The notes beneath the pieces were generated by a model. The model was not told the DNA's origin, did not search any database, and saw nothing but the letters and a program-made list of their open reading frames with translations. A program made the position numbers and the translations under genes. Source: Minisyncoccota bacterium (GTDB lineage Bacteria; Patescibacteriota; Minisyncoccia; UBA6257; 2-01-FULL-56-20). From it: 64,000 bases of DNA. Within the stretch, counting starts at the first letter, position 1. The number at the start of each line of letters is the position of its first letter. Positions 2,615-33,633 of this stretch are shown here, one piece after another. The stretch spans positions 133,774 through 197,773 of the forward strand of contig DATJLR010000002.1 in the NCBI GenBank assembly GCA_035509435.1, written 5' to 3'.

Positions 2615-3646
2615 ATGGCAAACATACGGGTTGCGATAAACGGGTTCGGCAGGATCGGTCGGTTGTTCTTTAAGGCGGCGTTCGAGACGCCGGGCATCGA
2701 TATCGTCGCGTTGAACGATCTTGGCGATGTGGAAAACCTTGCCTATCTCTTGAAGTACGACACGGTCTATCGCCGGTTCGACAAGGAGGTGAAGGCGGAC
2801 ATGGCGAACGGCAAGCTCATCGTGGACGGAAAGGAGATCGCGTTCCTTCAAGTGAAGGATCCGACGCAGCTTCCGTGGAAGGATATGAATGTCGACATCG
2901 TTGTGGAGTCCACGGGATTGTTCGATGAATATGAAAAGGCGAAAGTGCATCTTGCGGCGGGCGCAAAGCGCGTCGTGATCACGGCGCCGGCAAAGGACGA
3001 GGACGGCGAGGCCGGACAGACCGTGCTCATCGGGGTGAACGAGGACAATTTCAAGATCGCGCCGATCACATCGAACGGCTCGTGCACGACGAACTCCGCG
3101 TCGCCGGTCATCCAGATCTTGAGCGAGAACCCCGGCATCGTAAAGGCGTCGCTCTCCACCGTGCATGCGTATACCGCGACGCAGGCGATCGTGGACGGCC
3201 CGATCCGCGGCGGCCATGACTTCCGCAAGGGCCGCGCCGCGGCGATGAACACCGTTCCCGAAACGACCGGCGCCGCGATCAGCGTTGCGCGCGCGATCCC
3301 GGAGCTTAAAGGAAAGTTCGACGGGCTCTCGTTCCGCGTGCCGAACATCACCGGTTCCATCTCCGACATCACATTTATCGCAAAGCGGCCGACGACCGTG
3401 GAGGAGATCCGCCAGATCCTCACCGCCGCCGCCGCGTCGCCGCGCTGGCAGGGGATCCTGCAGGTGACGAACGACCAGCTCGTCTCGTCGGATATCATCG
3501 GCCAGCCGTACGGCGCGACGGTGCCGCTCGACCTCATCAAAGTGATCGACGGCGACATGGTGAAGGTGCTCTCGTGGTACGACAACGAGGCGGGCTACGT
3601 GAGCACGCTCGTGAAGCACGTGCAAAAGGTGGCGGCATTACTATGA
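2615..3646 (+). CDS. gap: glyceraldehyde-3-phosphate dehydrogenase
   Basis: NGFGRIGR NAD-binding motif and SCTTN catalytic Cys region; 343 aa. Confidence 0.9.
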   Translation: MANIRVAINGFGRIGRLFFKAAFETPGIDIVALNDLGDVENLAYLLKYDTVYRRFDKEVKADMANGKLIVDGKEIAFLQVKDPTQLPWKDMNVDIVVESTGLFDEYEKAKVHLAAGAKRVVITAPAKDEDGEAGQTVLIGVNEDNFKIAPITSNGSCTTNSASPVIQILSENPGIVKASLSTVHAYTATQAIVDGPIRGGHDFRKGRAAAMNTVPETTGAAISVARAIPELKGKFDGLSFRVPNITGSISDITFIAKRPTTVEEIRQILTAAAASPRWQGILQVTNDQLVSSDIIGQPYGATVPLDLIKVIDGDMVKVLSWYDNEAGYVSTLVKHVQKVAALL

Positions 3647-4751: not shown

Positions 4752-5612
4752 ATGGAACCCCTAAGCGAGAAAAAACTGAAAGAGATGGAGCTCGTGGCCA
4801 ATCGTCTGCGCGAGGACGTCATCAAGATGGTCTCGCATGCCGGATCGGGCCACATCGCCGGACCGCTCGACATGGCGGAGATCTTTACTGCGTTCTATTT
4901 CCATATATTGAACCAGGACCCAAAGAACCCGGCGATGCCGGATCGCGACCGTCTTGTGCTTTCGAACGGGCATATCTGTCCGATCCAATATGCCGCGCTT
5001 GCGCATGCCGGCTATTTCCCGGTCAAGGAACTGGATACTCTGCGGCAACTAGGCACCAGGCTTCAGGGTCATCCGCACCGCGGTGTCTTGCCAGGCATTG
5101 AGACCACGTCCGGGCCGCTCGGCTCGGGTATTTCGCAGGCGTCGGGCATCGCACTCGCGGCCCGCTTGGATTCCAAGAAGTATCAGGTGTACTGCATCAC
5201 TTCTGACGGCGAACACGAAGAAGGCAACACGTGGGAAGCGGTGATGTTCGCAGGCAAGAACCGGCTGAGCAATCTCACGGTGATCGTGGACCGCAACAAT
5301 ATCCAGATCGACGGCTTTACGGAGCACATCATGCCGCTCGAACCGTTCGCGGACAAGTATCGCTCGTTCAACTGGCACGTGCTCGAGATCGACGGGCATA
5401 ACTTTGAGGAGATCGTCGCCGCGGCAGCGGAGGCGCGCGCGGTGCACGAGCAGCCCACGGTGATCATCGCGCACACGATCCCGGGCAAGGGCGTGGACTT
5501 CATGGAGAACGATTACCTGTGGCACTCCAAGCCGTTCAAGCCGGGAGAGGCAAAGAAGGCCCTCGATGAGCTGCGCACGCTCCGCGGAAAGATACAAAGC
5601 GAACATCAATAA
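4752..5612 (+). CDS. transketolase, N-terminal (TPP-binding) subunit
   Basis: GSGHIAGPL..SNGH..GSLGSG TPP-binding motifs; 286 aa, split-type transketolase. Confidence 0.85.
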   Translation: MEPLSEKKLKEMELVANRLREDVIKMVSHAGSGHIAGPLDMAEIFTAFYFHILNQDPKNPAMPDRDRLVLSNGHICPIQYAALAHAGYFPVKELDTLRQLGTRLQGHPHRGVLPGIETTSGPLGSGISQASGIALAARLDSKKYQVYCITSDGEHEEGNTWEAVMFAGKNRLSNLTVIVDRNNIQIDGFTEHIMPLEPFADKYRSFNWHVLEIDGHNFEEIVAAAAEARAVHEQPTVIIAHTIPGKGVDFMENDYLWHSKPFKPGEAKKALDELRTLRGKIQSEHQ

Positions 5613-5644
5613 AAGTCGCGATAAGTAATTTATTTAAAAAAAAT

Positions 5645-6175
5645 ATGAAAGTGGTGAATTTTGTGATCGGGCTTGCGACGGCGGTGATCCTGGGGGCGCT
5701 CATCAATCTCGGCATCAAGGCGTTCTATCCGGAACCGGTCGCGCCGACGTATCCCAGCTATCCGGTCGCTGCCGCGCCGTGCGCATCGAACGATACTGCA
5801 TGCCAAAATCAGCAGTCGGCGATCGCCACCCAGCAAGAGGATGCATTCAACCAGCAGGAGACGTCCTATGAGGACGCGATGAAAGTGTACGATAAAAACC
5901 TTTTCATCATCGCGAACATCGTGGGCATCATCGTGTTCGCGGCCGGTTTTTGGCTGATCTTCGGCGGCGTGGCGCTGGCGTCGAATGCGGTGCCCATCGG
6001 CATGATGCTCGCCGGACTGTGGAGCATCATCTACGGCTATGGCCGCGGATGGGGGAGCGTTGATGACCAGCTGAAGTTCTTTATCGGCCTTGTTATCGCC
6101 GCGATCGTGATCGGCGGAAGCATGTGGCTCATGCAGCGCTACCAGAAAAAACGCGGTGCCGCGGAAACAAAATAA
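5645..6175 (+). CDS. hypothetical integral membrane protein
   Basis: Multiple hydrophobic helices; lies between the two transketolase subunit genes. Confidence 0.5.
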   Translation: MKVVNFVIGLATAVILGALINLGIKAFYPEPVAPTYPSYPVAAAPCASNDTACQNQQSAIATQQEDAFNQQETSYEDAMKVYDKNLFIIANIVGIIVFAAGFWLIFGGVALASNAVPIGMMLAGLWSIIYGYGRGWGSVDDQLKFFIGLVIAAIVIGGSMWLMQRYQKKRGAAETK

Positions 6176-27677: not shown

Positions 27678-27699
27678 TGCTATTATTGTACCAAATTTG

Positions 27700-27784
27700 C
27701 GGAGGGTGCAGGACTCGAACCTGCAAGTCCCTTACGGGACCCCGGTTTTCAAGACCGGTGCCTTGCCATTCGGCGCAACCCTCC
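27700..27784 (-). tRNA. tRNA-Ser (anticodon TGA)
   Basis: Acceptor GGAGGGT/ACCCTCC, anticodon loop CTTGAAA, long variable arm, T loop GTTCGAGTC; CCA not encoded. Confidence 0.85.
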
Positions 27785-27955
27785 TCTTGGATTTTATACC
27801 ATCAACTTATAATGTTTTCCAATCCAGCTCCTGGTGAGATAATGTTCTTCAGAGTGACAATTAGGACAGATCAATTCAAGATTATTCAATTCATTATTAT
27901 TTCTATTTCTGTCCTTATGGTGTACGTTCAAAATTTCACGCTTATTATAACCACA

Positions 27956-28288
27956 TCATTCGCATTTTCCACCCCGGATTTCAATCAGTCGTATTTTTAA
28001 GAGTCCAGTAGAAACGATTTTGTCTTTCAGCCTGCGCCCGGTATATTTTATACCCGCCCTATTTCTATTTGCACAACTTCTGCTGCATGTCTTTTTATTG
28101 AATCGCGCAGCGATGGGCTTTCCACGGATCGCACAGGGATGCTCTTTGAGGATAGATTTGCCGTAACAACTTGAACTGCAAAAGACATTTCCTTTATTGC
28201 CGGATATTTCTTTTGGTCTTCGATAGATCGGCCTCCGACAAATTTTGCATTCAATATTAGGGTTTCTCTTATACGCTTTCATCCACAC
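27956..28288 (-). CDS. hypothetical Cys-rich (zinc-ribbon-like) basic protein in AT-rich islet
   Basis: CKIC..x17..CSSSC plus a further C/H cluster; local GC much lower than surroundings; low confidence that it is expressed. Confidence 0.3.
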   Translation of the reverse strand: MWMKAYKRNPNIECKICRRPIYRRPKEISGNKGNVFCSSSCYGKSILKEHPCAIRGKPIAARFNKKTCSRSCANRNRAGIKYTGRRLKDKIVSTGLLKIRLIEIRGGKCE

Positions 28289-28344
28289 ACTTTACTGCCA
28301 AGCAAAATTGATTTCAAGAAAAATTTTAGAATTTTTTAATCTTG

Positions 28345-28415
28345 TGGACCCACGGGGAATCGAACCCCGACCTCCTCCATGCCATGGAGGCGTAATACCA
28401 TTTTACTATGGGCCC
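28345..28415 (-). tRNA. tRNA-Ala (anticodon GGC)
   Basis: Acceptor GGGCCCA/TGGGTCC with G3:U70, A73, anticodon loop ATGGCAT, T loop TTCGATT. Confidence 0.85.
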
Positions 28416-28502
28416 TTTATATTTGCAGATTTTCAGAACGGCCTTGCCACTCATTCTATATATATTGCGACCGATGCGTCAATCGTCTATAGTGTCTTCA
28501 AC

Positions 28503-28574
28503 GCCCTCGTAGTTCAACGGATAGAACCGACCCGTCCTAAGGGTAAGATCGAAGTTCAATTCTTCGCGAGGGCA
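28503..28574 (+). tRNA. tRNA-Arg (anticodon CCT)
   Basis: Acceptor GCCCTCG/CGAGGGC, D arm GTTC-AACGGATA-GAAC, anticodon loop GTCCTAA (27:43 mismatch), T loop TTCAATT. Confidence 0.7.
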
Positions 28575-28581
28575 CAACCAA

Positions 28582-28617
28582 AGGCGGATTTATCCACCGC
28601 CGGACTTTTCTTTTTTT
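28582..28617 (+). terminator. rho-independent terminator after tRNA-Arg
   Basis: GGCGG-ATTTATCCA-CCGCC hairpin followed by a T-rich run (CTTTTCTTTTTTT). Confidence 0.6.
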
Positions 28618-28619
28618 AT

Positions 28620-28961
28620 GGGAGTGCTATGGTAATGGGAGTTGCTTCCAAGTTTCAAACCAGGGATTTGGAGGCACATCTCAGACCCAAAAGGAAACGA
28701 TATATGCCCGTTGTCACGGTTCGCAGTGACTTGCAGCCCACAGGAGTATTTGTCCCTGGGCTGAACCCACCCAAACTAAACAGCGTATGCGTCAGCCCTG
28801 ACGTTGCCAATACGCTGGTGCCCCGCTTCATCGCTTCCCGTCGCGGAGGCCTGAAGCTTTCGAAGCCCGACTTTGCGAAACTCAAAGGCCATGCACTCGG
28901 AGAGAACGGCCAGCCCGGCTGTCTCTGCTGCCGAACGGCTCTCAATTGGGGTCTTTTCTAA
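28620..28961 (+). other. unassigned 340-bp element inside the tRNA cluster: candidate structured ncRNA or small basic ORF (28629..28961, 110 aa)
   Basis: GC-rich, several local hairpins; the ORF has a GGGAG SD at 4-nt spacing but atypical codon usage (gta, aga, agg, cga, cta). Confidence 0.25.
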
Positions 28962-29086
28962 CCCCGCTTTTCCCAGATCTGATTTTTCCCCAAGTACGCG
29001 GCGCTGCTCCTTCCCCAAGGAAGCAGCGCCTTTTTTATTTCCTGACCCTTGAAAAGGGTCCGCGTTTCTGTAACTATAGAGCGAAG

Positions 29087-29173
29087 GGAGAGGTGGCTGA
29101 GTGGTCGAAGGCGCCGCACTCGAAATGCGGTGTGCTCGAAAGGGCACCGTGGGTTCGAATCCCACCCTCTCCG
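29087..29173 (+). tRNA. tRNA-Ser (anticodon CGA)
   Basis: Acceptor GGAGAGG/CCTCTCC, anticodon stem-loop CCGCA-CTCGAAA-TGCGG, long variable arm, T loop GTTCGAATC. Confidence 0.85.
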
Positions 29174-29263
29174 CACCGGTGCGGATCACACGAATATGTT
29201 GCGCGATTGCCGTTTTTTCGCTATATTTTCTTGGAGCAGCGCGCCGCCGGCGCGCGTGACGGC

Positions 29264-29336
29264 GCCACCTTAGCTCAGTTGGTAGAGCAGTGCTTTCGTA
29301 AAGCAAAGGTCCCCGGTTCGAATCCGGGAGGTGGCT
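29264..29336 (+). tRNA. tRNA-Thr (anticodon CGT)
   Basis: Acceptor GCCACCT/AGGTGGC, discriminator U, anticodon loop TTCGTAA, T loop TTCGAAT. Confidence 0.8.
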
Positions 29337-29362
29337 CAAAAGTGATATAATAAGAACAATCT

Positions 29363-29578: not shown

Positions 29579-30641
29579 ATGGACCAGAACGAATCACTGA
29601 AGGAGCTTTCGGAGGAAGCCCGCCGGCTTGGCGGGCGGCTTTGACCTCGACGCGAAACGCAAACGGATCGCGGAACTCACGGCGGAAATGTCATCGGCGG
29701 ATTTTTGGTCTGACCGCGCGAACGCGGACGCGAAGATCCGCGAGCTCGGCGAACTGAACGACGTCGTTTCAAAGTATGAGGACATCATCGCCGGCGTCGA
29801 CGTGCTCGAAGCGGGGTTCGACGAAAATATGTTCCACGACGTCAAGCGCAAATTCCGCGATTTCGAACTGACACAGCTTTTCACCGGCCGGTACGACAAG
29901 CAGGCGGCCGTGCTCGCGATCTATCCCGGAGCGGGCGGCGACGACGCCGAGGACTGGGCGCGGATGCTTAGCGAAATGTACGAGGGCTACGCGAAGCTCC
30001 GCGGATGGAAGGTGCGCGTGGTGGACGACAATCCGCGCTCGCGCACGCTCGAAGTGAGCGGCCCCTACGCGTACGGCTATTTAAAGAACGAGCAGGGCGT
30101 GCACCGGCTTGTGCGGATATCGCCGTTCAACGCAAAACATTCGCGCGAAACATCCTTTGCGCTCGTGGAAGTGATGCCCGATCTGCCCGCGCTCGACGAA
30201 TCAAAGCTGCAGATCCCGGAGAGCGACCTCAAGTTCGAGTTTTCCCGCGCCGGCGGTCCCGGCGGACAGAACGTCAACAAGGTGGAGACGGCGGTGCGCG
30301 TGGTGCACCTGCCGACCGGCGTCGCGATCAGCTCGCGCGCCCAGCGCAGCCAGCAGCAGAACCGCGAGGCGGCGCTCAAGATCCTCAAGGCAAAACTTTT
30401 CCAGCTGATGGAGCAGGAGAAGGTGGAAGAGGTCGGCGCCCTCCGCACAAAAGTGAAGCCGGAGTGGGGGAGCCAGATCCGTTCGTACGTGCTGAACCCG
30501 TATCAGATGGTGAAAGACCACCGCACCGACGCCGAAACGGCGCGTGTGGATGAAGCATTGGCGGGAAACATTGATATGTTTATAGAGGCGATGCTGGAGC
30601 GGAAGGCGAATGACGACTCGGTGCCGAAACTTGACAAATAG
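29579..30641 (+). CDS. prfB: peptide chain release factor 2 with programmed +1 ribosomal frameshift
   Basis: Frame 0 ATG 29579 ([21 protein letters not shown]) ends at in-frame TGA 29642-29644 within CTT TGA C; the +1 frame continues ([12 protein letters not shown]...) to 30641 with SPF and GGQ motifs. Confidence 0.9.
29630..29648 (+). promoter_or_regulatory. RF2 autoregulatory frameshift site (internal SD-like GGCGGG, CTT TGA C)
   Basis: GGCGGGCGG CTT TGA CCT; canonical slippery CUU plus UGA with a C in the +1 context. Confidence 0.85.
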
Positions 30642-30696
30642 GCAATTATATTGTTATAATACCACTGCACCTTCAAAACCAGTGAAATTACTTGGT

Positions 30697-30749
30697 AGTT
30701 ACAGCCTTTAGCGCATATCCGATTGATATTCGTTAAAAGCTGTAACTAC
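30697..30749 (+). promoter_or_regulatory. 11-bp inverted repeat (GTAGTTACAGC / GCTGTAACTAC) in the 5' leader of the DGR target gene
   Basis: Perfect arms at 30697-30707 and 30739-30749 with a 31-nt spacer, 20 bp upstream of the SD and ATG at 30769; TATAAT at about 30653. Confidence 0.5.
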
Positions 30750-30768
30750 ATTTCAAGGGAGAATCGTC

Positions 30769-31359
30769 ATGGCACAGCGTGTCGCAGGCGAAATCTACGA
30801 ATCAGTGACCGGTCAGCTTTTTGAGATCGGCCGTCAGCTTCGGCAACCGAACGGATATCCGTTCGATGCACAGAAGCTCCAACGCGCACTTCAAAACGCC
30901 ATCGAGGGAAAGTTTGATGTCACGTCGGTGGTCCAGCAGTATCTCGTCACCGTGAACTACGACCTTTCGGTTAAGGACGCGATCGCGGCGGGACGCTACG
31001 ACTGGAAGAACGATGACATCACCGCCAAGAACTTCCCGTCGAAGCGTAAGGGAACCGCCGATCTGGAAATCATCCTCGTCAAATTTGACGATGCGATGAG
31101 TTCCGAGGGTATCCTCCGCGAGCTCGACAAGCAGGGACTGCGCGCGGCCGAGTTGCCGGAACTGCTTGCCTTCGGGGAGAAATACCCCGATGTGCAGCGC
31201 GAGTTCCCGGTGGTCGCACTTGGTTCCGTGTGGCGGGGCTCGGTCGGCAACCGTGGCGTGCCGTACCTCCGCGGGTACGCTGGCAAGCGCTACCTGCTCC
31301 TGGACTGGTTCGGCCTCGGGTGGGGCTCGCTCTGCCGGTTCGCCGCAGTCCGCAAGTAA
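30769..31359 (+). CDS. DGR target (variable) protein with C-terminal VR, C-type-lectin-like fold expected
   Basis: 196 aa; the last 45 codons are the VR and end in the invariant CRFAAVRK; AGGGAGAA SD. Confidence 0.8.
   Translation: MAQRVAGEIYESVTGQLFEIGRQLRQPNGYPFDAQKLQRALQNAIEGKFDVTSVVQQYLVTVNYDLSVKDAIAAGRYDWKNDDITAKNFPSKRKGTADLEIILVKFDDAMSSEGILRELDKQGLRAAELPELLAFGEKYPDVQREFPVVALGSVWRGSVGNRGVPYLRGYAGKRYLLLDWFGLGWGSLCRFAAVRK
31221..31355 (+). repeat. DGR variable repeat (VR)
   Basis: 135 bp; 112/135 identical to the TR, and all 23 mismatches lie at TR adenines; 3' 34 bp identical and GC-rich (IMH-like). Confidence 0.85.
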
Positions 31360-31404
31360 TTTTATACCTTAGGCACTGGGTCACTCATTTTTTCTGATCC
31401 TTTG

Positions 31405-31436
31405 TCCCTTCGGCCCCTGCACGAGATTTGGATCTT
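31405..31436 (+). other. GC-rich hairpin downstream of VR (CCCCTGCA..16 nt..TGCAGGGG)
   Basis: 8-bp stem 46 bp after the target stop codon; candidate terminator and/or DGR homing-associated structure. Confidence 0.5.
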
Positions 31437-31709
31437 TTGCAGGGGCTTTCCATTTTCAGCCGGTATGATATTTTGAATTTGGATAGTAGGCTCAAAACAA
31501 GTTGCAGGCTACGGTTCGCAACGGCCGAATTCCGGGATGACTGAATGGAGAATGGTTGCGGGTACGCTTTCGGCCAGAGTTGTTCTCTCATCCCCCAAAA
31601 ATAAAGATACTTGGTGCAAGATATTAGAGGATTAGAATTCCGAGATCCCGAATACGATTCAGTCCCGAGAGTATTCAAGGGGCAGTGGCGCAGGCGATAT
31701 CTTGTACGC

Positions 31710-31844
31710 TGGTTCCGTGTGGCAGAACTCGGACGGCAACCGTAACGTGCCGTACCTCAACAGGAACGCTGACAAGCGCAACCTGAACCTGAACTGGTTC
31801 GACAACAGGTGGAACTCGAACTGCCGGTTCGCCGCAGTCCGCAA
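31710..31844 (+). repeat. DGR template repeat (TR)
   Basis: Direct repeat of the VR; in the VR reading frame it carries 13 AAC codons plus GAC/AGG/CAG codons at every variable position. Confidence 0.85.
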
Positions 31845-31866
31845 CTCTCTTTGTTTTCACGCCGCC

Positions 31867-32193
31867 CTATGCGGCGTTTTCTTTCATCAATTGCCTGTTC
31901 CAGCCGCCGAGCATTTTGCCGATCTCGTTCAACTTTTCCGAGAGATAAATGTATTTCTTCTCGTCCAACCCCTTGATCTCCCAGAGTATTTGTAAAAAGA
32001 ATTTTGCGAGATCGAGCTTGGCTGTTGCTTGTTGGATGTAGGGGAGCTTTTGGTGTTTCCCTAAATAGCTTGCTATGAAAATAAGCTCGGCGGTATCTAC
32101 AAATGCGGTATCGATTTTTGTCCCTAATGTATAGCGCGCGTCTTTCGGTACGTGCGTCAGGAACTCATGCCAGGTTTTGTATGCCGCCACCAA
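31867..32193 (-). CDS. avd: Avd-like accessory variability determinant (four-helix-bundle protein)
   Basis: 108 aa; VPKDARYTLG ... LSEKLNEIGKMLGGW matches the bAvd/four-helix-bundle family pattern (IP.KHG ... EVGRILGSW); encoded on the strand opposite to TR and RT. Confidence 0.65.
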   Translation of the reverse strand: MVAAYKTWHEFLTHVPKDARYTLGTKIDTAFVDTAELIFIASYLGKHQKLPYIQQATAKLDLAKFFLQILWEIKGLDEKKYIYLSEKLNEIGKMLGGWNRQLMKENAA

Positions 32194-32222
32194 GTGTTGG
32201 ATAATGGGAAGTGTAAGGTGTC

Positions 32223-32232
32223 GGGGGGGGGG
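32223..32232. repeat. G10 homopolymer in the avd-RT divergent intergenic region
   Basis: gtcGGGGGGGGGGtta, 25 bp upstream of the RT ATG. Confidence 0.8.
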
Positions 32233-32256
32233 TTAAAGGTGAATTCATAATATAGT

Positions 32257-33213
32257 ATGTTTGAAGAAATTATCAGTGCTGAAAATTTGTTGGCCGCGTG
32301 GGAGGAATTTATTACGGGCAAACGCGCAAAGCGCGATGTGCAGGAATTCCAGCTGCACCTTATGGATAACATTCTAGCGCTTCGCGACGATTTGCGGAAT
32401 GGCGCCTATCGCCACGGCGAATATCAGGCATTCAACATCTCCGACCCCAAACCGCGGAATATCCATAAAGCGACCGTGCGCGACCGCCTGCTCCATCATG
32501 CGATCTACCGCGTGCTCTATCCGTTCTTTGACCGCACGTTCATCGCGGATTCGTTCTCGTGCCGCGTCGGGAAGGGAACCCATGCGGCGATGGACCGGTT
32601 CCGGGCGTTCGGTTATGTCGCAAGCAGGAACAACACGCGCACGTGTTGGGCGCTCAAATGCGACATCAGGAAATTTTTCGCGAATATTGATCATGAAGTA
32701 TTGCTGAAAATCTTCGCGCGGCGGATCGGCGATGAACAACTGCTTTCGTTGTTGCGCGAGATCGTCGAGAGCTTTTCCTCTGTGCGCCCTGGCGTCGGCT
32801 TGCCGCTTGGCAATCTTACTTCACAGTTATTCGTGAACGTCTATATGAACGAGTTTGACCAATTTGCCAAACACGCGCTTCGTGTAAAATATTACATTCG
32901 TTATGCCGATGATTTTGTCATTTTATCTTCCAACCGTGATTGGCTTGGGATCATTTTGCCGGAAATAGATTATTTTTTGCAGGATCGGCTGAAATTGCAG
33001 CTCCATCCCGACAAGGTCTTCATCAAGACGCTTGCCTCCGGCATTGACTTCCTGGGGTGGGTGCATTTTCCTGATCATCGCGTTCTGCGCACCGCCACAA
33101 AGCGCCGAATGTCCAGGCGCGTGAGCAAAGATCCTTCTCTGCCGGTCGTCAATGCTTACAAAGGGATGCTGTCACACGGGAATGCCCATAAGCAAACATT
33201 AAAACTTCCTTAA
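32257..33213 (+). CDS. DGR reverse transcriptase
   Basis: RT motifs: SFSCRVGKGTHAA, ALKCDIRKFFANIDH, LPLGNLTSQLFVNVYMNEFD, IRYADDFVI (YxDD); 318 aa, typical DGR RT size. Confidence 0.9.
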   Translation: MFEEIISAENLLAAWEEFITGKRAKRDVQEFQLHLMDNILALRDDLRNGAYRHGEYQAFNISDPKPRNIHKATVRDRLLHHAIYRVLYPFFDRTFIADSFSCRVGKGTHAAMDRFRAFGYVASRNNTRTCWALKCDIRKFFANIDHEVLLKIFARRIGDEQLLSLLREIVESFSSVRPGVGLPLGNLTSQLFVNVYMNEFDQFAKHALRVKYYIRYADDFVILSSNRDWLGIILPEIDYFLQDRLKLQLHPDKVFIKTLASGIDFLGWVHFPDHRVLRTATKRRMSRRVSKDPSLPVVNAYKGMLSHGNAHKQTLKLP

Positions 33214-33243
33214 AAAGTTTTTGACTTCGTTTTTGCCAAAGCT

Positions 33244-33633
33244 ATGATTGTCGGTATGATAAAAAAGAAAAAGATGACCATAGAAGACCTGGCGGTAAAG
33301 ATCGATGACGTCCAAACGAAGATGGGCGGGTTGGCAACGCATGTCGATGAAAAAATAGACGAGTCCGTTGGTAATTTGGCCATCATGGTCCAGAAAGGAT
33401 TTGCCGAAACGGCAAAACAGGAAGATCTGCTCGCGCTCACCGATCGGGTTAAGTTGATAGAAGAGCGCCTCGATGGGCACGATAAAGAATTCAGAGGCAT
33501 GCATCAGAATTTCGATATGATCTTCCAAGAACTGAAAGCGATCCGCCAAGAAATGAAGGAAGCCGATACCCGCGCCGACGTCGTCGACCTGCAGCTTCGC
33601 GTTGCGAAACTCGAAAAGAAGATCCGTCCATAG
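33244..33633 (+). CDS. small coiled-coil protein (paralog of 54268..54585)
   Basis: 129 aa, charged heptad pattern; shares the N-terminus MI(V/G)(G/V)M and C-terminus L.LRV.KLE with the gene inserted in the atp operon. Confidence 0.5.
   Translation: MIVGMIKKKKMTIEDLAVKIDDVQTKMGGLATHVDEKIDESVGNLAIMVQKGFAETAKQEDLLALTDRVKLIEERLDGHDKEFRGMHQNFDMIFQELKAIRQEMKEADTRADVVDLQLRVAKLEKKIRP

Follow-up and report, generated by a model that had tools for sequence, protein, structure and literature searches.

A length-variable C-tract in the 5' coding sequence of avd as a probable phase-variation switch of a diversity-generating retroelement in Candidate Phyla Radiation bacteria

The diversity-generating retroelements (DGRs) of bacteria that belong to the Candidate Phyla Radiation (CPR) have a well-described gene order. 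In the CPR DGR set of Wu et al. 2018 (PMC5758913), 90% belong to architecture B3, TR-(avd)-RT, in which the accessory gene avd is on the reverse strand, next to the template region (TR) and the gene of the reverse transcriptase (RT). We have analyzed one such cassette, and above all the homopolymer at its avd gene, in a stretch of 64,000 nucleotides (hereafter the window, whose own coordinates are used throughout) from a Minisyncoccota bacterium (assembly GCA_035509435.1, contig DATJLR010000002.1, positions 133,774 to 197,773 of the forward strand). The complete DGR spans 30.7-33.2 kb and consists of a target gene with its variable region (VR), the TR, a reverse-strand avd and the RT. It has both the TR-(avd)-RT order and the reverse-strand avd that define B3, without any architectural difference from the published cassettes, and it resembles them as well in the adenine-specific differences between TR and VR. 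The host clade also agrees, the relatives being Patescibacteria metagenome-assembled genomes (MAGs).

As a comparison set, relatives of the RT were fetched, 80 from species-representative genomes (nearly all of them Patescibacteria MAGs) and 80 from metagenomes; 152 loci had enough flanking sequence upstream of the RT to be used, and 131 of these form a non-redundant subset (L numbers below denote individual loci, and P numbers proteins or the lineages that carry them). In all 152 relatives an avd homolog is adjacent to, and divergent from, the RT. The initial annotation of the window had correctly recognized an Avd-like open reading frame (ORF) on the minus strand, divergent from the RT, but it took this orientation for a departure from the canonical DGR cassette that might even betray a misassembly. 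The ORF is genuine, since the Pfam family bAvd (PF22296) matches it at 46.2 bits against a cut-off of 40, and its coordinates do place it divergently from the RT; the orientation, however, is the published norm, and a misassembled cassette is excluded because every relative has the same layout. The divergent avd is the ordinary CPR arrangement, already known, and in itself no novelty. One further lineage (P0127; L193-196) was considered for the comparison and rejected as not comparable, having another gene order, with avd not beside the RT, and no repeat.

Two other kinds of described system bear on this locus. The DGR of Bordetella phage BPP-1 (mtd-avd-TR-brt; PMC6182149) shares with it an Avd of the four-helix-bundle family, an RT in which the motifs [LIV]GxxxSQ and YxDD are present and a mutagenesis directed at adenines, whereas in BPP-1 avd stands upstream of the TR in a co-directional arrangement. 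The second is translational phase variation by simple sequence repeats (SSRs), as in the poly-G/C tracts in the 5' coding sequence of surface genes of Neisseria, Haemophilus, Campylobacter and Bordetella (PMC5084427, PMC6321876, PMC1891110). The avd genes considered here resemble such contingency loci in several respects: a homopolymer of at least 8 nt in the 5' coding region, a tract length that is polymorphic between near-identical strains, a reading frame that is accordingly ON or OFF, approximately two thirds of the alleles being OFF, and a different repeat unit at the same site in some alleles. They differ from them in what would be controlled, which in place of a surface antigen or a restriction-modification enzyme is the accessory subunit of a machinery for targeted hypermutation, and in their hosts, which are uncultivated CPR bacteria. 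We consider it probable, by a good margin over even chances, that the C-tract of avd is a contingency-locus SSR that phase-varies Avd and, through Avd, the activity of the DGR.

The homopolymer of the window is a G10 run on the + strand at 32223-32232, exactly where the initial annotation had put it, 24 nt from the ATG of the RT. The same annotation placed this run within a 63-bp intergenic region between avd and RT, a view that does not hold up once homologous proteins are taken into account. As assembled, avd starts at a TTG and encodes 108 aa (31867..32193, - strand), an N-terminally truncated reading: it matches bAvd with an E value of 7e-12, and the NCBIfam profile DivGenRetAVD at 74.3 bits, but over profile positions 12-103 only. 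The NCBIfam profile begins at LPIIQHL, upstream of the TTG, and the homologous Avds (243 matches) start M..(T)PPP(R)xxLPIIQHL, which is to say that they are translated across the tract (alignment A1). In the window, too, the avd frame is open upstream of the TTG and through the tract, PPPRHLTLPIIQHL, back to a TAA at 32235-32233. Moreover, the LPIIQH codons, between the tract and the TTG, vary at their wobble positions from one locus to another, and because of this pattern we read that stretch as coding. The G10 run, C10 on the avd coding strand, sits within the conserved 5' coding sequence of avd, not in an intergenic region.

This conserved 5' part (32194..32248, - strand) comprises the ATG at 32248-32246, some leader codons, the C-tract and RHLTLPIIQH, and at C10 it is out of frame with the body of the gene. 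No start codon other than this ATG is present upstream of the tract; at C10 it is in the +1 frame and translation terminates, and at C9 or C12 it is in frame with the avd body. A C9 reconstruction of the gene extends the DivGenRetAVD match to positions 1-103, with a borderline score of 79.8 bits (cut-off 80), and its product, MNSPLTPPRHLTLPIIQHLVAAYK..., aligns without gaps to the homologs and is nearly identical to P0006, MNSPVTPPRHLTLPIIQHL. To judge by these frames, the assembled C10 allele leaves avd frameshifted, that is to say OFF, C10 being an OFF length in this lineage; the body of the gene is intact and 73-86% identical to its homologs. An internal TTG or GTG was tried as the general start of avd and rejected, as the codon is not conserved as a start and the OFF ORFs lose 11-35 conserved N-terminal positions.

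Across the relatives, what is maintained at this site is a repeat. A C-run of 6-14 nt is present at the 5' site of avd in 143 of the 152 loci, its mode being 10 (lengths of 6, 7, 8, 9, 10, 11, 12, 13 and 14 nt in 4, 4, 21, 33, 53, 18, 6, 2 and 2 loci, respectively). In seven loci the place of the C-run is taken by a dinucleotide repeat, (CA)n in L016, L089, L094 and L103, (CT)n in L046 and L063 and (GA)n in L074, and the remaining two loci have no repeat at all. In the 64 kb of the window, the G10 is the sole G or C run of at least 8 nt. The related loci, 975 kb in total, contain 143 such runs, of which 135 are at the avd 5' site and 8 elsewhere, and at least five of these eight turn out to be the same avd site after all. 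Four of the five are in the stub just upstream of the RT on contigs that end before avd (in L137 and L146 with the run at the first base, in L038 and L104 with the run 13-14 nt in), and the fifth belongs to a second avd copy in L019. A simple repeat is over-represented in the 5' coding sequence here, as it is in contingency loci.

The composition of the site points in the same direction. At least three consecutive CCC codons are found there in 94% of the loci; outside the site, only 23-26% of the prolines of these RT and avd genes are encoded by CCC, and the row of CCC codons therefore reflects selection on the nucleotide run. The dinucleotide variants encode the unrelated peptides HT, SL and ER. 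The conserved property is slipperiness, and neither a G-specific element nor a polyproline motif. Phage controls were drawn from five weak Avd matches in a tblastn search of a phage collection; in the two phage DGRs with a co-directional avd, those of Vibrio phage ZX4290 and Bacillus phage BalMu-1, there is no repeat at the avd 5' end (n=2). The avd of BPP-1 is not known to have a repeat at its 5' end either.

The tract also leaves its mark on the assemblies. Three contigs end exactly within it (L137 at 1-11, L146 at 1-10 and L169 at 1-9), and of the two that end a few bases away (L038 and L104, mentioned above) L104 shows a G16. These breaks look like the result either of length heterogeneity or of poor coverage of poly-G, and contigs ending in the tract are what one would expect from a sample in which several tract lengths are present.

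Some cassettes depart from the one-tract pattern. L075 has two further G10 runs, at 3404-3413 and 5253-5262, one of them at the 5' end of an ORF for a signal-peptide protein directly downstream of the RT and the other 13 nt upstream of a second Avd-like ORF (5275..5676), with the poly-G on that gene's own strand. In L019 there is a G11 at each of its two avd copies. Repeats may, then, mark other DGR-linked genes. On the other side are the B3 cassettes L200/L201 (the P0235 lineage), L073 and L108, which have lost the repeat and are stably in frame; the tract of the P0235 lineage is interrupted, CCCTCGCCCCG, encoding P-S-P-R, and these loci provide naturally 'locked ON' controls.

Contigs whose RT proteins are identical were retrieved and compared lineage by lineage, and it is here that the variability of the tract is most evident. 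In the P0190 lineage, five samples of a single project have C9, C8, C12, C11 and C8, which makes them ON, OFF, ON, OFF and OFF; their avd is called as 127/128 aa when ON and as 96 aa when OFF, and in the approximately 4 kb compared they differ otherwise only within the VR. The P0124 lineage, with the same synteny as the window and an RT 84% identical to that of the window, is represented by six contigs, three with C10, two with C11 and one with C12, of which only the C12 contig is ON; their other differences amount to only 7 substitutions, in the VR, and one more contig ends within the tract. The pair L115 (C10, OFF) and L118 (C9, ON) has 0 mismatches over 2212 bp apart from the tract, and the pair L156 (C10, ON) and L157 (C8, OFF) has 17 substitutions, 15 of which are in the VR. 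In L016 and L094 it is the (CA)n block that differs, by 10 nt, along with 26 substitutions that are not confined to a VR (99.0% identity).

Three other lineages have a single tract length each and are OFF throughout: P0188 (9 contigs, C8) and P0237 (4 contigs, C9) show no other differences, VR included, and in P0226 (3 contigs, C11) one TR base differs and none in the VR. The closest relatives of the window (L083 and L172-174, with RTs 86% identical to its own) have C9, with no change in the distance to the ATG, and are ON. In the same-strain comparisons avd is 127-128 aa long when ON vs 91-96 aa when OFF, in-silico translation and gene calls agreeing on this point. Sister lineages show two of the features by which contingency loci are recognized, length polymorphism among otherwise identical sequences and a frame that it switches ON or OFF. 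The tract is coding, conserved as a repeat, polymorphic in length between otherwise identical contigs and able to toggle the avd frame. The suggestion in the initial annotation that the G-tract is a slippage-prone switch for RT and/or avd survives in part: the length does vary and does toggle avd in the relatives, and the effect that can be demonstrated is on the reading frame of avd, not on a promoter.

Of the 131 non-redundant loci, an ATG is in frame in 39 and only a GTG or TTG in 10, the other 82 being out of frame; the in-frame share is roughly one third and looks like what would be expected if the frame of the consensus sequence is not under selection. The two places at which these cassettes are hypervariable are the tract and the VR, and the association of a variable tract that includes ON alleles with a variable VR is suggestive.

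The mechanism that we propose begins with replication slippage, which would alter the length of the C-tract at the 5' end of avd. In the window the tract reads C10 and would encode Thr-Pro-Pro(-Pro) within avd; at a length of 9 or 12 the ATG at 32248 is connected with the Avd body (ON), and at 10 or 11 the shifted frame runs into a stop (OFF). In the Bordetella phage DGR, the synthesis of cDNA requires Avd as well as bRT (Handa et al. 2018, PMC6182149), and because Avd is an essential partner of the RT in that system, the tract should gate mutagenic retrohoming stochastically. Retrohoming would then proceed in a minority of the cells only, the others being OFF, and a costly targeted mutator would be controlled by bet-hedging. 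That the switching is reversible and of high frequency within a population is something we infer, as is the step from OFF alleles to a loss of the Avd protein and with it of DGR activity, for which the phage system is the analogy. A still broader proposal, that across the CPR the DGRs carry an SSR switch at the avd 5' end that makes hypermutation phase-variable, and that the repeat, at its 13-25 nt upstream of the divergent RT start, regulates the two genes together, we would put only a little above an even chance.

A number of observations weigh against phase variation of Avd, and they deserve to be set out together. The differences in the tract between samples are differences among consensus sequences. 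In the consensus 63% of the loci are OFF, and this would fit equally well if the frame of the DNA were irrelevant because transcription or translation slips. Nor are the frame offsets from the ATG to the avd body quite even: scored over the 131 loci, offsets 0, 1 and 2 number 32, 54 and 35 (chi-square p = 0.03, uncorrected for phylogeny), the excess falling on alleles that, like that of the window, have one C too many; this could be due to an expansion bias or to tolerance through +1 slippage. The VR of the window is diversified at 23 positions though its avd is now OFF, and past ON states or leaky expression are therefore required. The Avd (P0001) and RT (P0121) of the window occur on only two contigs, from sample ERZ27256608 and run SRR8879132, both 100% identical to the window and both C10; the two assemblies evidently derive from one dataset, which makes them uninformative on heterogeneity. 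For the link between tract and VR there are six lineages, with divergence time as a confounder, since these two are the fastest-changing sites. Finally, the requirement for Avd has been established for the Bordetella phage DGR and not for those of the CPR.

The alternative that fares best is recoding, in which the C-run would make the RNA polymerase stutter, or the tRNA-Pro slip on CCC-C, and a fixed fraction of the products would reach the Avd frame whatever the length of the DNA tract. The tract would then set a low Avd:RT ratio, with no on/off state at the level of the cell. Recoding would accommodate several awkward facts: two thirds of the consensus alleles are out of frame, yet avd is under purifying selection; the overrepresented offset 1 is precisely the state that a +1 shift on CCC-C would mend; and the VR of the window has been diversified with avd OFF. 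The modal length of 9-11 nt, besides, matches the length of the RNA:DNA hybrid at which transcriptional slippage is efficient. There is also a formal likeness to the programmed slippage or +1 frameshifting of Thermus dnaX and of prfB (release factor 2, RF2), since in each case a slippery run stands between a short upstream ORF and the main frame. Programmed sites, however, keep a single frame relationship across homologs, whereas the offset here is not fixed: all three states are common, and the length of the DNA tract itself varies, even between identical strains. The dinucleotide repeats of seven loci are classic substrates for slippage of DNA and not of polymerase or ribosome, slippage is best documented for A/T runs rather than G/C runs, and the three fixed-OFF lineages are without any change in the VR. 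We consider recoding as the whole explanation to be unlikely, though it deserves to be kept in mind, and it can coexist with phase variation of the DNA.

Less probable again, and in our estimation rather doubtful, is that the tract acts mainly on the expression of the RT, as a G-run in the promoter spacer, the initially transcribed region or the 5' untranslated region (UTR) of that gene, with the prolines of avd a mere by-product. In promoter-spacer phase variation, that of porA, opc and fim for instance, the repeat stands between recognizable -35 and -10 hexamers of the gene it regulates. The geometry is favorable: the tract is mostly 13-25 nt upstream of the RT start, a fairly constant distance, and because the start codons of avd and RT either overlap or are separated by 0-8 bp, the promoter or 5' UTR of the RT has to be inside the 5' end of avd. 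In the P0124 lineage, a Shine-Dalgarno-like AAGGTG directly follows the tract. Nevertheless, a scan of 31300-32500 for sigma-70-like promoters found no -35/-10 pair on the + strand near the tract, CPR promoters being poorly known; it gave two minus-strand matches, which overlap each other and are no more than shuffled sequences give. The RT-strand sequences that flank the tract in the 131 loci have only a weak A/T-rich consensus and no conserved hexamers. The CA, CT and GA replacements speak against a G-specific element, and toggling of the avd frame is a direct effect that needs no added assumption. A role in RT expression is in any case compatible with phase variation of avd, and the two are not exclusive.

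The remaining explanation, that C10 is a homopolymer error of sequencing or assembly, or avd a pseudogene in a dead DGR, draws on the known proneness of homopolymers to error, on the frameshift in avd as assembled and on the coverage of this strain by one dataset only, but is highly improbable and is largely refuted by the comparative data, since C10 came from two different assemblers, the same repeat stands at the same codon in the 143 independent assemblies out of 152, the differences of 3-4 nt between samples exceed sequencing error, the avd body is intact and still close to its homologs, and the adenine-only TR/VR differences are those of a working DGR.

The architecture of these cassettes is already known, while a length-polymorphic repeat that toggles avd throughout a clade does not seem to have been reported. 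The main text of Wu et al. 2018 (PMC5758913) makes no mention of any repeat within avd; the words 'homopolymer', 'slippage' and 'phase' do not occur in it, and 'frameshift' occurs once, for a VR. In the full-text literature that can be searched, we found no paper linking DGRs or Avd with homopolymers, SSRs, slippage or phase variation, although priority cannot be fully established in this way. The control of DGR activity is largely unknown. Surveys find both active and inactive DGRs, and unchecked mutagenic retrohoming should be costly. If phase variation of Avd is indeed the function of the tract, a slippery repeat in an essential accessory gene would offer a simple means of turning the element on and off, both heritably and reversibly. 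Such a locus would be the first of the phase-variable kind to be linked with a diversity generator, and a clear example of a contingency locus in uncultivated CPR bacteria, with a stochastic mutator controlling a programmed one, and it would explain why many DGR-bearing populations look inactive. The question can be tested with existing metagenome reads. There are practical consequences as well. Gene callers mis-start or miss avd in approximately two thirds of the cassettes (with calls of 91-109 aa, or none), assemblies break at the tract, and the reconstitution of a CPR DGR needs a tract of in-frame length.

The other components of the cassette are those of a standard DGR. The target gene (30769..31359, + strand) is an ORF of 196 aa to which profile searches of Pfam and NCBIfam assigned no family. 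The VR lies at its 3' end (31221..31355, + strand), a 135-bp repeat of the TR inside the ORF that stops 4 nt short of 31359, the last base of the stop codon. The TR itself (31710..31844, + strand) is non-coding, begins 350 nt downstream of the target ORF and is 83% identical to the VR; it is A-rich at the mismatch positions, and of the 135 positions 23 are mismatched, all 23 at adenines of the TR (A>G 13, A>T 6 and A>C 4). The differences between the repeats are thus confined to adenines, and the VR has the position at the 3' end of a coding target that is characteristic of DGRs. Directly after the TR, and overlapping the stop codon of avd, there is a terminator-like hairpin with a T-rich tail (31859..31887, + strand; hairpin 31859-31877), consisting of a 7-bp stem with 6 G-C pairs followed by TTTCTTTCAT. 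As a lone consensus match the hairpin does not exceed what shuffled sequence yields, and a terminator function would be deduced from its position alone; it nonetheless suggests that the TR may be a short transcription unit of its own, not co-transcribed with the RT through the antisense avd. An Rfam scan of 30600-33400, with E values up to 1, matched nothing.

The RT (32257..33213, + strand; 318 aa) matches RVT_1 at 75.3 bits and has both the LGNLTSQ (motif 4, [LIV]GxxxSQ) and YADD (YxDD) sequences of a DGR-type enzyme in its translation; the libraries used contain no DGR-specific RT model, and the NCBIfam matches of this protein to group II intron and Drt models are all below cut-off. Its ATG at 32257 is the first possible start, because a TAA at 32248-32250 closes the frame upstream. 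In approximately 27 of the 131 loci, by contrast with the window, no ATG in the RT frame precedes the conserved N-terminus on the RT side of the tract. The start codons of avd and RT are 8 bp apart in the window, and the TATAGT from which the initial annotation suggested a leaderless or short-leader RT transcript is indeed present immediately 5' of the RT ATG. It is not conserved; in the relatives (L165-L174 upstream of the RT, and many of L001-L162) the spot is occupied either by CATATG or by a quasi-palindrome of 21 bp. In the former the avd and RT starts are back to back as CATATG; in the latter, ATGAGTCAATTGAATTTTCAT, with CAATTG at its center, both starts lie within the quasi-palindrome and the ORFs overlap head to head. 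This could be a shared operator or a mere constraint of dual coding.

Directly downstream of the RT is an ORF for a coiled-coil protein of 129 aa (33244-33633) without any family match. In the closest relatives (the P0122 lineage) it is kept, at 128-129 aa, before ftsE and ftsX; the P0124 lineage has an ORF of 107 aa in the same place, assigned by position alone, and the more distant cassettes have none. Five tRNA genes (Ser-tga, Ala-ggc, Arg-cct, Ser-cga and Thr-cgt) are clustered at 27699-29337, just upstream of prfB and the DGR. The prfB gene, encoding RF2, has an ORF0 from the ATG at 29580 to a CTT TGA C at 29637-29643, from which the main frame continues to 30641; this is a canonical programmed +1 frameshift site, and it shows that UGA is read as a stop in this host.

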